A DNA stretch of 64,000 bases, from the NCBI GenBank assembly GCA_963751455.1, contig CAVVUN010000001.1:1-64000 (forward strand). Direction: 5' to 3'. A program made the translations under genes and the position numbers. Every line of letters starts with the position of its first letter. The stretch's first letter is position 1. This stretch comes from Nitrospirota bacterium. Lineage in GTDB: Bacteria > Nitrospirota > UBA9217. The notes below the pieces were generated by a model, which was not told where the DNA came from, ran no database searches, and was given only the letters and a program-made list of their open reading frames with translations. Positions 10,555-32,236 of this stretch are shown piece after piece.

Positions 10555-11220
10555 ATGAACAGTCTTACTTATTATCTTGAACAATACGGTTTGATCTCAC
10601 TGGAAAAGCAGGAAAAGCTTATTCGTGTCGTCGGTGAACACGAAAAAGAGCTTGATTACGACGAAGGACTAATTCGCTTCAACGGGATTGAATGCACCTT
10701 TCAGGTGCTGGGCACGGAATCGGATAATACCATAACGTGGCTCTGGGCGTGGGCCGAGGAGCAGACGGAAACACCGGACCATCTGCTCAGGGCTTCCCTG
10801 CAAATGAGAGAGTGGGGCAGAAAGACGGGACTTTCGGAGTTCACCATGCCGTCCGTGGACCTTGTCAAGGCGGACGGGCATGTCCTTTCAGTGATCTCTT
10901 CCGCGGTCTGTGATGCCAGCTGCTATTATCATGATCCGTATGAAGGCGGCGGTTTGTTCATCCTGGTCTTCGGCAAGCAGATAGATCAAGGGCCTTCTTT
11001 CGATATCAAAAGCCTTTCGCGGCAGTTTGCATACCTGATTTCGCTCCATGACCTCAATCACCGGAACGCCCTTCTCTCCTATATTCACGGCAAAGGTCTT
11101 CCGTTAAACGAGGAGGCCACCATGGTTACAGCAGAACTGGAATCAGGAGAAACACTGAAGGCGGAATTTGATAAAGAAGGACGGTTAAAGACGATAAACG
11201 GGTCGGAGCTTGCGGCTTAG
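10555..11220 (+). CDS. DUF6882-like protein
   Basis: FQVLGTES..TWLWAWA motif; ATG after GGGGGA. Confidence 0.7.
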   Translation: MNSLTYYLEQYGLISLEKQEKLIRVVGEHEKELDYDEGLIRFNGIECTFQVLGTESDNTITWLWAWAEEQTETPDHLLRASLQMREWGRKTGLSEFTMPSVDLVKADGHVLSVISSAVCDASCYYHDPYEGGGLFILVFGKQIDQGPSFDIKSLSRQFAYLISLHDLNHRNALLSYIHGKGLPLNEEATMVTAELESGETLKAEFDKEGRLKTINGSELAA

Positions 11221-11657
11221 GCGCTTACGCCTGTAACATCGACAAAAGATTGTCGATCTTTAAAAAGAATTTAATGCAAAAACAGGATTATATTGCGCTC
11301 GCAAAGGAAGGCCAAACCGCCGGGTTTAAAACCAGACTTAAAGCTGCTTTACGAACCAACATCTTGAGTTTTTAGTCGAGTCAAAACCAAAACCCAATTT
11401 TCACACAAAGCCACGAAGCCACAAAGAAGAAAACTGAATTTTTTGTCTTTCGATTTTTTTGTCTTTCTCCGTGTCTTAGTGGCTTCGTGTAAGATCGTTT
11501 TAAGGTTTTACTTTTGCTTTATTGGTCTGAGGCGTAACCTCATAAAAGTTTACTTTGCGTTCTTTGCGGCTTTGCGAGAGACGCCTTTGACTTTTTGTTG
11601 TTATTTCTGTCCCGAAGGGACCATGCCTGCCGGGCGAAGTCCCGGCAGACACGTAGA
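11218..11657 (+). repeat. ~440-bp non-coding structured repeat, copy 1
   Basis: Near-identical to 14031-14453; nested inverted repeats. Confidence 0.9.
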
Positions 11658-11835
11658 CAGTTACATCTTAAATTCTTTCCAAAATGGAAAGAAAATCAAA
11701 AAGCATATTAGCCGCGGATTGACACGGATAATAAATATAAATTTCTTGTTTTTCGTTTTCAATCCGTGTCGATCAGTGGCCATCCGTGGCAAACGAATTT
11801 GTCTTTGGTTCCGACTTGCCCGGGTTAGTGCTGCG

Positions 11836-14030: not shown

Positions 14031-14453
14031 TAGGCGCTTACGCCTATAACATCGACAAAAGATTGTCGATCTATAAAAAGAATTTAATGCAAAAACAGGA
14101 TTATATTGCGCTCGCAAAGGAAGGCCAAATCGCCGGTTTAAAACCAGACTTAAAACTGCTTTACGAACCAACATCTTGAGTTTTTAGTCGAGTCAAAACC
14201 AAAACCCAATTTTCACACAAAGCCACGAAGCCACAAAGAAGAAAACTGAATTTTTTGTCTTTCTCCGTGTCTTAGTGGCTTCGTGTGAGATCGTTTTAAG
14301 GTTTTACTTTTGCTTTATTGGTCTGAGGCGTAACCTCATAAAAGTTTTCTTTGCGTTCTTTGCGGCTTTGCGAGAGACGCCTTTGACTTTTTGTTGTTAT
14401 TTCTGTCCCGAAGGGGCCATGTCTGCCGGGCGAAGTCCCGGCCGACACGTAGA
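14031..14453 (+). repeat. ~423-bp non-coding structured repeat, copy 2
   Basis: Direct repeat of 11218-11657, lacking the 16-bp internal duplication. Confidence 0.9.
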
Positions 14454-14459
14454 TACTTT

Positions 14460-23702: not shown

Positions 23703-23843
23703 CCAATCCCGGGGCTGAGCCGCCACCCGAAGGGGGTGTCGGTCTCTAGCCCCTGGTTCTCCCGGCGCGACTTTCGATTGCGCCGGGGTTAGGGACTCCG
23801 GCTCAGCCCCGGGATTCTTACGGCGCGAAGCGCCGGGAGAAAC
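23703..23843 (-). other. ORF-less gene cassette with its own attC and an internal anti-attC, copy A
   Basis: Near-identical to 31155-31294; attC arms GGGGCT.GAG/CTCAGCCCC. Confidence 0.75.
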
Positions 23844-23878
23844 GTGCGCGTGAGGGGCGCGGTTCTCAGCGACCCTCT

Positions 23879-26007
23879 TCCGGGTAGGAGCAGCGGTTGC
23901 CCGCCGCTCCCCCCACAGACCCGGACGTGCCCAATTAAGGCATCCGGTTCGTCAGTCGCTACGGGCCTTAGCCCGTGTCGAACCAAACAGGCGTCCCCGT
24001 TTGGCGCATAACTTTTGCTGTCCTTGGCTCGGTCAGATGTTGTGGATGATCCTGGGTTTCGGAAGCGGATACACTTTCCGAAAGACTTTGTCAAACTTCT
24101 CGACGTTCACATAGCCTATTGCTGCGCCTGCTAAGCCACTATCGCCAGGCACGCTCCGTATGCTCGAAAACGACTTCGAGCATTTTGTAGTTGCCCCGGA
24201 TGCCGTAGTACTGGTAGTAGCCGCGCAGCTTGGAGCGGAGCGTATCGTGTTGCTCCTTTACGGGGTCGTGCAGGTTTTCCCGGCACCACTCCCATATGGC
24301 TTTCATGAATCTTCGGAGTCGTTTGCCGATCGTTTTCCGCTTAATGATCCAGTATCCATTAAGTGATTTGGCCCAGAAATGGGTGAATCCGAGAAAGTCG
24401 AATGTCCCATTTTCCTTTTCCGTCTTCTCTTTCGGGGATGGCTGGATAAACCGAACCAGCTTCGTCTTTTCGGGATGAATGGTCAGGTTGTAACGGCTGA
24501 ACCGTTTCGGCAGGACTTCCAGCACCCGGCGGGCGTCGGCTTCTTGCTCGAAACCGATGATAAAATCATCGGCAAACCGAATCAGGAAGCTCTTTCCCTT
24601 GAGGCGTGGCTGTACGTCCTGTACGAACCATTCATCCAGCACGTAGTGCAGGAATATATTGGCAAGCATCGGCGATGCTACTCCGCCTTGCGGCGTGCCT
24701 TTGTCGGGGTAGATCATGTTCCCGCCGTCGAGCACTCCGGCATTGAGCCATTTGCCGATGAGCCTTAATATTCCTCCATCTTTCACTTTCTTCTCGATGA
24801 AGCTTCTGAGAAGACCGTGATTGATGGTATCGAAAAATCCGCTTACATCCGCATCCACTATCCAGTTGATGTTCAGCTTGATGCACTGCTCTCGTAGTTC
24901 CCGTATCGCCTGATGCTGACTGTGACCTTTTCTGAAGCCGTGGGAGAACGGATGGAATATCGGCTCGAAGATGTCCCCAGGATCATGACCACCGCTCGTT
25001 GGACGATCTTGTCCTCGTAGCAGGGTTTGCCGATGGGTCTCTGCTTTCCGCCTTCCTTCTCGATCCATACCCGTTCGACGGGTGGAGCCACGTAACGGTT
25101 TGATTTCAGCCGTTCGTGCAGGTCGTGGAGGTTTTCGTACAAGGCTTCGGCGTAGTGCTTTGCCGTTACCTTGTCTACTCCCGGAGCGCTGTCTTTGCTC
25201 GTCCGTTGGTAGGCTTCCAATAGAAGGTCATCGTCAATCAGATGATACAGGTTGTTGAACACCATCTCCGGATAGTTCCGTGCCTGTTCCGCAATCTTCT
25301 GGAGTTTCGGTGATATGATTGGCGATCCCGGAGTATCTCTCATAGTTCCTTCCAGAAGACGTTATGCCCGGCCTCTCCTTCCCTTGAGCGGGTCCCTTGG
25401 ACCTCGGTTCCCCGCCTTCCCGGTCCCGGATATTTTCGGGGCCATCGGTACTATGATCGGCTAAGATTGCCTGACGCCCGTCTCGCAGCACTTCGCTTGT
25501 CGCTGGCGCTGCGATACCATGCTTGCTCTCTGGTTTCGCTCGTCGGCAATAGAGAGCGCATTGCCGACGCCGTGGACTTTGTTCCGCCGGTGTCCTTCCG
25601 GCTATTCAGCATGGAAACATCCGGCTCTCTCAAGTTCCCGAGTTATCCCCTTGTGTGCGTGCCCCGATCTAAGACCCCGGTGGTGTCCTTTCGGCTCGCC
25701 ATAGCGCCTTCAAGGACTGTTGCCTTCCGCTGCGTCGAGTACGTCGGCTTTGGCTCCGATGTTTTGGAGGTTATCCTACTGACCACAACTATACATATTT
25801 CGGGATTCAATAACACGGCCTGCATACTTGCTCCGCCCGGCTTCATACCTTCCCTTACGGGAACGCACGCGGGCTTCGCTACCGACCTGCCGGCTAAGCT
25901 TTAGTCGGATGGGACTTGAGTCGCTTCGACTCGCACCCACTGGATAACAATGACAGATTTCGTAGGATCGCTCCTATTCCCGCTGCCTCGGGTTTATCTT
26001 GGCGCTA
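23879..26007 (-). mobile_element. Group II intron inserted in an attC site
   Basis: Domain V GAACCGGATGCCTTAATTGGGCACGTCCGGGTC and domain VI ending CCTACCCGGA; 5' end TAGCG; removal rebuilds a complete attC. Confidence 0.88.
24033..25343 (-). CDS. Group II intron reverse transcriptase/maturase without endonuclease domain; frameshifts (~24975, ~24115) and in-frame TAG at 24139
   Basis: APGVD, RPIGKP..EDKIVQRA, GTPQGG.ASP, RFADD, FDFLGFTH, C-terminal PLPKPRIIHNI. Confidence 0.9.
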
Positions 26008-26330
26008 CGACGCGAATGTTGGGATCTCTTTCTGGTCTTTCGGTTACTTGCAAGATCAAGCAAGGCATTAGGATGTTTCTCCGCGACTTGCAGTAATACA
26101 CGTGCAGGCCCTTCGGGCTTACGGCGTCCTTGTTCCCAGTTACGTAGCGTTGCGGTGCTGATTCCCATAAGGATAGCAAACTTGTCCTGTGAAAGACCGT
26201 ATTGCTCGCGTATCTTCCGCACTTCGGATTCGGGAAAGGTAAAAGTGCGGGAAGGTTTGAGGGTGCCCTTCATGATCGCACCGCCTTGCTTCACACTTTC
26301 GACTAATTCATCAAAAAGTTCTTTTTTCAT
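25974..26330 (-). CDS. higA: HigA-type HTH antitoxin (NadS-like)
   Basis: LSQDKFAILMGISTATLRNWEQGRRKPEGPARVLL; overlaps the toxin stop. Confidence 0.88.
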   Translation of the reverse strand: MKKELFDELVESVKQGGAIMKGTLKPSRTFTFPESEVRKIREQYGLSQDKFAILMGISTATLRNWEQGRRKPEGPARVLLQVAEKHPNALLDLASNRKTRKRSQHSRRSAKINPRQRE

Positions 26331-26639
26331 CGTAATTCTCCTTCAACAATCTTCTTTAATTGCTTTAATTGATCCGGTGTTAAGTCAGCCTGTTCATTCT
26401 TTGGAAATGCGAACAACATCATGATAACTTCATTGGATACGAACCAATAATAGATTACCCTGGCCCCGCCCCGTTTCCCGCGCCCACTGGCTGACCATCG
26501 CAGTTTACGAAGACCGCCGCTTCCGGGAATAATTTTTCCAGAATCTGGTCTCTGCACCAATTGGGATGAACCGATACTCCTCATCGGAAAGAATATCTTG
26601 TATGCGACGGGTGAATATGGGAGTCTCTATTATGACCAT
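26327..26639 (-). CDS. higB: HigB/RelE-family toxin (frameshift ~26570)
   Basis: MVIIETPIFTRRIQDILSDEEYR then IPGSGGLRKLRW..GKRGGARVIYY..PKNEQADLT. Confidence 0.85.
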
Positions 26640-26665: not shown

Positions 26666-26696
26666 GAAGGCAAGAGGATTGTTGGAGAATTTACGA

Positions 26697-26754
26697 CTCG
26701 AAACAGAGCGAGGGCGCGGCTCTTTACTGCCGCGCCCCTCATGACAGATTATTT
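26697..26754 (-). other. Degenerate attC-like hairpin
   Basis: Minus strand AAATAAT..GAGGGGCGCGGC-AGTAAAGA-GCCGCGCCCTC..GTTTCGA. Confidence 0.45.
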
Positions 26755-31154: not shown

Positions 31155-31294
31155 CCAATCCCGGGGCTGAGCCGCCACCCGAAGGGGGTGTCGGTCTCGA
31201 GCCCCTGGTTCTCCCGGCGCGACTTTCGATTGCGCCGGGGTTAGGGGCTCCGGCTCAGCCCCGGGATTCTTACGGCGCGAAGCGCCGGGAGAAC
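31155..31294 (-). other. ORF-less cassette with its own attC (31153-31214) and an internal anti-attC, copy B
   Basis: GTTCTCCCGGCGC/GCGCCGGGAGAAC ends; AATCCCGGGGCTGAGCCG complementary to CGGCTCAGCCCCGGGATT. Confidence 0.8.
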
Positions 31295-31339
31295 GCGAAG
31301 ATGAGCCCCGTTACGTGGGGCTCGATCTTCTGGTTGGAT
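31288..31339 (-). other. attC site of the first gene cassette
   Basis: ATCCAAC-CA-GAAGATCGAGCCCC..GGGGCTCATCTTC-GC-GTTCTCC. Confidence 0.9.
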
Positions 31340-31988: not shown

Positions 31989-32236
31989 ATGCTTCCCATC
32001 CCGGACGATCGACATAGTGAAGCCCTTCAACGCGCTCATGGAGGAAAAGTCGGTCCCGCCGCTCTTCGTCGCACACCTTCCGCCACAGCTTCGCGACTCA
32101 TTTGCTCCAGGCGAATTACGACATCCGAACGATCCAGACTCTTTTAGGTCACTCTGATATTCGAACGACCATGATCTACACCCACTGCATTCCGAGCAAG
32201 GCGGCGAAAGAAGTGAAAAGTCCGCTGGATTTTTAA
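31989..32236 (+). pseudogene. intI: Integron integrase remnant with a large internal deletion
   Basis: [38 protein letters not shown]...VKSPLDF* joined to ~30 putative N-terminal codons (MLPIPD..). Confidence 0.88.

Follow-up and report, generated by a model that had tools for sequence, protein, structure and literature searches.

How does a group II intron come to lie inside the attC site of an integron cassette, on the strand that carries the cassette genes, and what does it read there? The question is raised by a stretch of 64,000 nucleotides from a Nitrospirota bacterium (assembly GCA_963751455.1, contig CAVVUN010000001.1, positions 1 to 64,000; hereafter the window), in which an intron of 2,129 nt splits an attC behind a toxin-antitoxin (TA) cassette. 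The explanation that we favour, and consider probable, is that the intron belongs to a class E lineage that homes to the top strand of attC, one base past the extrahelical base of L'', by RNA-DNA pairing, and that the window copy has a broken enzyme gene. Its position, its orientation and strand, its class, its lesions and the covariation of its sequence with that of its targets are taken as established in what follows.

Rfam searches of the window matched the group-II-D1D4-6 model at 25918-25665 with 112 bits and the model for domains V and VI at 23952-23878 with 28.8 bits, which is below the gathering score. In the DNA the intron starts TAGCG and ends CCCGGA, as the first-pass annotation of the locus had read it. 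When the intron is taken out the joined flanks read TCCCAAC-ATT-CGCG-TCG + AG-AGGG...CCC-CTC-A-CGCG-CAC-GTT, in which L'' is CGCG-T-C-G/A-G... (the slash marks the insertion point) and L' is CTC-A-CGCG, followed by GTT. That annotation had claimed that removal of 23879-26007 leaves a complete attC with an extrahelical C, and this is borne out by two empty attC sites of the same genome, at C12:73336 and C15:1068008, which have the identical junction, TCG|AGAGGGTCGCTGA, and to both of which the rebuilt attC is nearly identical. Folding gives -17.2 kcal/mol for the rebuilt bottom strand and -20.4 for the empty sister sites; nine of the ten L-arm pairs form, the imperfect palindrome R''-L''-L'-R' with its extrahelical base is present, and R'' (TCCCAAC) is one mismatch from RYYYAAC. 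Together the Rfam matches and the rebuilt attC uphold the claim of a group II intron in the attC top strand at the L'' box, and the intron does run with the cassette genes as had been noted, the relE/higB toxin gene, the helix-turn-helix (HTH) antitoxin gene and the intron all being on one strand.

With its six-domain RNA, in which domain V and a domain VI with a bulged A can be recognised, and a reverse transcriptase (RT)/maturase gene in domain IV, the feature is a predicted group II intron; in the consensus fold of domain I a double change is seen in 52 of 88 pairs. It does not carry the group II hallmarks of GUGYG...AY ends and an AGC or CGC triad, having UAGCG...GGA and an AAC triad in their place, and since these oddities are found throughout the lineage and are compensated they are read as a variant, not as a reason to exclude it from the group II introns.

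A second full copy lies at C1:504177-502048 (94% identity, BLAST of the genome), where the gene is intact and domain VI is short of two bases. The intact RT gene (G000:C1:503510-502197) encodes 437 amino acids and scores 337.7 bits against TIGR04416, for which the cut-off is 300, with RVT_1 and a weak GIIM as its only other domains. The enzyme had been described as ending PRIIH without an endonuclease, and indeed the C-terminus is PRIIHNI and there is no endonuclease domain. In the window the gene is damaged in three places: one nucleotide is missing near 24973, a TAG stands in frame at 24141-24139, and two nucleotides are missing near 24116; judged by these lesions, the window copy is unable to encode its own enzyme and is a predicted non-autonomous relic. 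BLAST of the genome also found two 5' fragments of the intron on C15. All four copies and fragments start after an attC-like left arm ending TCG, with AAC at -13 in three and at -14 in one, so far as sequence can tell an association with attC in this genome that goes beyond chance. Three of the four stand on the G-rich strand, where 18 of the 35 attC sites of the host also lie, a comparison that has four copies only on one side. The genome also carries at least four other group II introns, at C3:361348-359984 (L004), C2:435981 and C2:443251 (both L005) and C9:74689 (L006). One is of a canonical class E type and lies about 2.5 kb from a broken intI, the rest are IIC-like; two IIC-like introns are near the intI at C2:447629, and one IIC copy begins directly after the 3' end of another.

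The class of the intron was read from its enzyme and its RNA. In a tree of 38 hand-picked rows (IQ-TREE, LG+G4), which was accompanied by a quick tree of 93 rows under LG+G4, the intact enzyme falls in a clade supported at 100/100 with three references labelled class E in PMC8919778, apart from the F/g3, g1 and IIC rows, although those labels come from a best-hit pipeline, which counts against our reading; 20 rows of the intron's own lineage form a clade at 91/96. Class E references match the D1D4-6 model as this intron does, and the F/g3 reference matches D1D4-4. Classes E and F are described as carrying alpha-prime on the Id3 stem-loop (PMC3753933, in the sections available). By the grouping of its intron-encoded protein (IEP), the lack of an endonuclease and a class-type domain I with the Id3 stem-loop, where the alpha-prime pairing is putative, the intron is assigned to class E, not IIC. 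The first-pass annotation had likewise placed it outside the IIC-attC introns. Location in an attC and the missing endonuclease are what would be expected of a IIC-attC intron, yet the chance that it is one is negligible: the IEP lies outside class C, the insertion is in the top strand at L'', the Rfam match is to D1D4-6, and there is a 6-nt exon-binding site 1 (EBS1) together with a covarying EBS2. That identity was refuted by the RT tree and the EBS1/EBS2 pairing.

Is the attC site an accident of this genome or a habit of the lineage? Two scans gave 95 loci, the second contributing the best 80 of 87, and four sequences from the genome itself were added; a 5' end could be defined in 68 sequences and a 3' end in 65. 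The starts are TCGTG (32), TCGCG (20), TTGCG (12), TAGCG (2) and TTGTG (2), and the 3' end is ACCCGGA in 56 of the 65. AAC occupies -13 to -11 in 38 of 61 distinct 5' flanks and begins at -14 in a further five, against an upstream background of 1.6% per position; the first exon base (+1) is A at 48 of 54 sites, the base at -1 varies freely, and the first intron base, U1, is invariant. The flanks of the homologues are mostly attC left arms in a fixed register, which agrees with the attC habit that had been annotated. For a rebuild test 42 distinct sites with both flanks were used, with one plasmid locus added, and an attC was counted as rebuilt when it had seven or more of the 10 L-arm pairs and a GTT in the right place. 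This was so at 17 of 28 sites with AAC at -13 and at none of 11 sites that lack AAC; controls on the 28 AAC sites gave a mean of 5.7 (maximum 11) with permuted right exons and 0.64 with shuffled ones. The best rebuild score is obtained with the bulge at -2 and the +1 A kept in the exon. Nearby attC-like sites number 18 on the same strand and one on the opposite strand around the AAC-type loci (145 kb), and one and two, respectively, around the other loci (43 kb). On the tree the label of an attC site needs four changes, so that attC targeting is widespread in the lineage and not universal. Named hosts of the relatives include Nitrospirota, Bacteroidota, Myxococcota and Desulfosarcina sp. BuS5, a plasmid of which carries a member of the lineage (L102).

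How the target is read is suggested by column-by-exon covariation, which couples intron nucleotides 271-276 to exon positions -1 to -6 and nucleotides 213-218 to -10 to -14; both segments are unpaired in the consensus fold and stand at the usual places of EBS1 and EBS2. Over 40 clusters EBS1 forms a mean of 5.06 of 6 pairs with intron-binding site 1 (IBS1), against 2.64 +/- 0.18 when permuted (0/5000; best of two registers in both), and the EBS2 core 2.58 of 3 pairs against 2.08 +/- 0.07 (0/5000). In the window intron EBS1, CGACGC, pairs fully with the exon GCGTCG, so the pairing looked for at this place is found. EBS1 varies by sub-lineage and tracks local attC families, and the commonest attC junction in the host genome is TCG/A (24 of 49 attC-like matches); host attC sites such as C1:558517 and C12:78250 offer all 6 of 6 EBS1 pairs. 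The UGU core of EBS2 is present in 24 of the 40 clusters, 22 of which have an AAC site, and an AAC site is found in 5 of the 16 clusters with other cores; sub-lineages that do not use attC have compensatory changes in EBS2, such as UCU with AGA. The first-pass annotation had spoken of an attC-targeting mode of the intron's own; the targeting of attC holds, and the mode is likely ordinary IIB EBS1/EBS2 pairing tuned to the attC consensus and not a new chemistry.

It could be held that there is no specialisation at all, insertion occurring at any loose EBS match and purifying selection sparing those copies that land in harmless intergenic attC sites. Many sequence-matched sites do lie outside attC, one third of the clusters sit elsewhere, and sister class E introns sit in insertion sequence (IS) elements. 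Selection against harm, however, would not maintain a match of EBS2 to the inverse core, and UGU is kept in 24 of the 40 clusters, 22 of which have AAC sites, while EBS1 shifts between attC families, which makes this account very unlikely.

Several further observations weigh against the explanation we favour. Eleven of the 28 AAC sites rebuild no full attC, and a stricter, symmetric attC ladder test finds 9 of 30 sites, a test that under-calls them because attC spacers are asymmetric. No AAC site is found in 13 of the 40 clusters, no integrase was found in the flanks of the homologue loci, many of which are on short contigs, and the permutation tests ignore relatedness above the level of clustering. 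EBS3 was not identified by covariation, because +1 is nearly invariant. Finally, the genome holds 18 unoccupied GCGTCG/A sites with AAC at -13, and only two of them are attC-like, so pairing alone may not explain the bias to attC, and selection or hairpin recognition may add to it.

The last of these points bears on a hybrid form of recognition, in which EBS1 and EBS2 pair and in addition the ribonucleoprotein reads the folded top-strand hairpin of attC, or the protein reads distal bases of R''. Introns of the IIC-attC type are described, in the parts of the source at hand, as recognising the folded attC hairpin on the bottom strand (PMC3001079). Both full copies in the genome are in attC sites despite the 16 free matched sites that are not attC-like, some attC insertions tolerate only four of six EBS1 pairs, and the insertion site is fixed one base from the extrahelical base. 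On the other hand EBS1 forms on average as many pairs at attC-like sites (5.2) as elsewhere (5.1), a folded attC would hide IBS1 within its L-box stem, and sub-lineages with an altered EBS2 occupy non-palindromic sites; the hybrid is in our judgement unlikely, and RNA-DNA pairing without it remains our preferred account.

The unusual ends of the intron form part of an unusual catalytic core. In group II introns the first base of the linker between domains II and III (J2/3) pairs with the last base of the intron, and the second forms a triple with the middle base of the triad. The canonical class E intron L105 has a GUGCG start, GGA in J2/3, an AGC triad and a GAC end. In the lineage a U start, UUA in J2/3 and a GA end occur together in 48 of 51 full introns, J2/3 is UUA in 61 of 69, the triad is AAC in 64 of 66, and opposite its middle position G or A is found in most cases. 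In rhizobial sisters J2/3 is GUA, the triad AAC and the end GGC, and in an Alteromonas sister they are UUA, AAC and GGA; sisters with a G at the first J2/3 position (gamma) end in C, so that gamma and the terminal base covary across the class E relatives. At the gamma and at the triple positions the bases change together as they should; this lends support to the boundaries and suggests that the alternative core is functional, and it may predate or parallel the targeting of attC. In such a core U1 would go with G at the last base but one, the gamma U with the terminal A, and the J2/3 U with the triad A, and the non-canonical ends are likely the real splice sites.

Misplaced boundaries, with true ends nearer the canonical ones (the 3' end including the next A, for example, or the 5' start at an upstream G), are very improbable in this light. 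The near-constant +1 A could belong to the intron, and no transcript was seen in the sequencing runs searched: for this locus the word share was at most 0.13, and four runs showed fragments of relatives and no exon-joining contig, an outcome that speaks neither for nor against splicing. Empty attC sites, however, retain the +1 A, without it the sites with at least eight pairs in the rebuild test fall from 12 to 5, the base at -1 is free to vary where U1 is not, and the covariation of gamma with the terminal base places the end where we have it. The feature is taken to be real, a class E lineage likely homing to L'' of attC on the sense strand with a compensated non-canonical core. The first-pass annotation had pointed to the unusual ends and inferred a different intron class; the ends are indeed unusual, and they are not specific to attC, as the odd core is partly common to class E sisters that dwell in IS elements. 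Sister class E introns were seen on plasmids of Methylocystis, rhizobia and Alteromonas (L104, L108, L109, L110 and L111); these share the AAC triad and a U in J2/3 and end GGC or GGA, and L108 and L110 start UUGCG after a common exon motif, apparently in IS66 transposase genes as read by eye.

The way in which the intron may work can be put together from these parts. EBS1 would pair with exon positions -1 to -6, its sequence having been adapted within each sub-lineage to whichever attC family is local, here as CGACGC for the GTCG/AG sites of the host; the UGU core of EBS2 would pair with the conserved AAC(A) of R'' and in this way set how far the insertion lies from the inverse core. IBS3 is likely the A at +1. 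The sense orientation would let cassette or TA promoters transcribe the intron, and once spliced the RNA would again contain the whole attC. Reverse splicing could then take place into the single-stranded top strand at replication forks, as is described for RmInt1 in the accessible part of PMC5894124. In DNA, with 2.1 kb inserted in its L box, the interrupted attC would likely no longer be recombined by the integrase, since a folded bottom strand and its extrahelical bases are needed for this (PMC8946536, in the portion available). The TA cassette would in that case be immobilised, the neighbouring integrase being only a remnant, and the window copy could move only with enzyme supplied in trans, for example from the copy at C1:504177.

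Table 1. The intron, its parts and the surrounding features in the window.
Feature	Position	Strand	Basis
Group II intron, class E, 2,129 nt, 5' UAGCG...ACCCGGA 3'	26007..23879	minus	Rfam, second copy and homologue ends, tree
EBS2 UGUAUA, in an unpaired stretch of domain Id; its UGU core would pair with ACA, from R'' and the base after it	25790..25795	minus	covariation, consensus fold
Extra Id3 stem-loop, at the alpha-prime place of classes E/F (putative alpha-prime)	25754..25769	minus	consensus fold columns 254-273
EBS1 CGACGC, fully complementary to exon -1 to -6	25732..25737	minus	covariation and pairing
J2/3 linker UUA; first U likely gamma partner of terminal A	25462..25464	minus	comparison with L105
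RT/maturase gene without endonuclease, pseudogene in the window copy	24033..25343	minus	sequence; comparison with intact copy
Domain V, triad AAC (23949-23947) in place of AGC; G opposite middle A	23918..23950	minus	sequence, Rfam, comparison
Domain VI, bulged A at 23885, seven bases before 3' end	23879..23916	minus	sequence, Rfam
attC left part: R'' inverse core TCCCAAC (26024-26018), spacer, start of L'', extrahelical C 26009; IBS2 about 26021-26017, IBS1 26013-26008	26008..26024	minus	sequence, empty sister sites, covariation
attC right part: remainder of L'' (AG, of which A is likely IBS3), terminal stem-loop, L', spacer, R' GTT (23843-23841)	23838..23878	minus	sequence, empty sister sites
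HTH antitoxin gene, HigA/NadS-like	25974..26330	minus	Pfam HTH_3; NCBIfam NadS below cut-off; open reading frame list
RelE/HigB-type toxin gene of interrupted TA cassette	26327..26584	minus	Pfam RelE E 6e-8, above cut-off
Integron integrase C-terminal remnant, divergent from cassette array	32057..32230	plus	TIGR02249 positions 257-313, E 3e-24, below cut-off; Pfam Phage_integrase

The surroundings (Table 1) include further attC-like sites at 31323, 30080 and 29173, and by these and the integrase remnant the locus is a predicted degraded integron array; full intI genes are present at other places in the genome, the window having only the remnant. The antitoxin frame has no stop before the attC, crosses its left arm and ends 34 nt into the intron. 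With the intron removed a stop would be reached in the loop of the attC, and splicing would alter only the last residues. At 26690-26745 (minus strand), upstream of the TA genes, a hairpin with GTT after it looks like the remaining right half of an attC of the same family that has decayed, and it would provide the core site of the TA cassette. An element of 139 nt that has no open reading frame is found in the window at 23703-23841 and 31155-31293 (minus strand), with further copies in the genome (G000) at C1:395140, C1:394528, C15:274408, C12:76715 and C9:290530, and in those copies that were inspected it follows the R' G/TT of an attC. Its core is GTTCTCC, with GGAGAAC as the matching inverse core; its attC-like tail ends GATT, and it contains two inverted repeats that cross each other. 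The Rfam search of the window gave no match to it, and it may be a gene-less cassette or an attC-targeting miniature inverted-repeat transposable element. A direct repeat of about 430-440 nt (96-99% identity) lies elsewhere in the window, at 11218-11662 and 14031-14458, the two units being 2.8 kb apart.

Among the relatives some loci are complex. A different type of group II intron, with an AGC triad (three rows forming one clade), occurs within or beside introns of the lineage at L088:5499-6967, L080:5474 and L065:2603, and in L088 it is inserted at the junction of domains V and VI, giving a twintron. At L053:2235-2237 two AAC-triad introns stand in tandem with one base between them. L029 and L030 have a common 3' exon and L045 and L047 a common 5' exon; these may be assembly artefacts and are not counted as evidence of recombination.

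What would follow is a class E lineage, spread over many environmental bacteria, whose members sit at a constant position in the top strand of attC and, it appears, recognise the integrase core through RNA-DNA pairing. Integrons would then be parasitised in a second and independent manner, which bears on how cassettes are made and frozen. The lineage would also be a natural test of the catalytic triple helix that group II introns share with the spliceosome, as the middle G of AGC and its J2/3 partner have changed together, and since a plasmid member is present in a named host, Desulfosarcina sp. BuS5, both the targeting and the triple-helix questions are testable. A bolder view, which we hold to be quite improbable, is that of a widespread and undescribed class E lineage that lives as a specialised parasite of attC, has a rewired active site (AAC triad, J2/3 U, U...GA ends) and acts as a sense-strand engine of cassette formation. 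If that were true, the co-orientation of intron and cassette and the split of the attC between its conserved halves would mean that a spliced RNA has a complete attC restored behind a gene, and that arms of attC are moved onto new genes when copies recombine with one another.

It remains to set the intron beside systems already described. Reviews, in the parts available, distinguish three habits of target choice among bacterial group II introns and connect insertion in attC with class C. The passages open to the literature search, which did not extend to several older primary papers, describe only single sense-strand cases in attC, at other positions, and make no mention of a class E lineage at L'' or of an AAC triad with a J2/3 U. 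The IIC-attC introns (S.ma.I2 lineage; PMC3001079, PMC7923331) are, as these papers in part describe them, also endonuclease-less, concentrated as a lineage in attC, and found where a cassette gene is parted from its working attC. They insert in the bottom strand (PMC3001079; PMC4424553, as far as the excerpts go) at R'' (TTGT/T), opposite to the genes, with an EBS1 of 3-4 bp and a DNA hairpin that replaces IBS2, whereas the present intron is of class E, lies within L'' on the top strand and has an EBS1 of 6 nt and an EBS2 that matches R''.

Closer in some respects is UHB.I2 (Sonbol and Siam 2021, PMC7923331), which is likewise not IIC, is oriented with the cassettes, has non-canonical ends (UUGCG...GU) and lies in an array with TA systems; it differs in being of class CL1/IIB1, directly downstream of attC and with poorly conserved exons, and in the available text it stands alone, no targeting across a lineage being shown for it. 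From the same paper, seen in part, come H.ha.F1 and H.ha.F2 of a Halorhodospira halochloris CALIN (cluster of attC sites lacking integrase), which are of class E and lie in an attC cluster inside TA cassettes, and whose insertion site is undefinable because they are 5'-truncated. By eye their proteins are closer to L004, the other class E type of this genome, than to the lineage described here. The top-strand group IIC intron of Enterobacter cloacae reportedly targets the attC core site and not L''. It shares the top strand of attC and the orientation of the cassettes with our intron and differs from it as a member of class C, going by its brief citation in PMC7923331. With the bacterial class E (IIE) introns, as portrayed in the accessible portions of PMC3753933, PMC3552965 and PMC8919778, the intron shares the IEP clade, the lack of an endonuclease, the D1D4-6 match, the Id3 stem-loop and the use of EBS1 and EBS2; canonical members have GUGCG...GAC ends, GGA in J2/3 and an AGC triad, whereas this lineage has UNGYG...GGA, UUA and AAC, and its targets are mostly attC.

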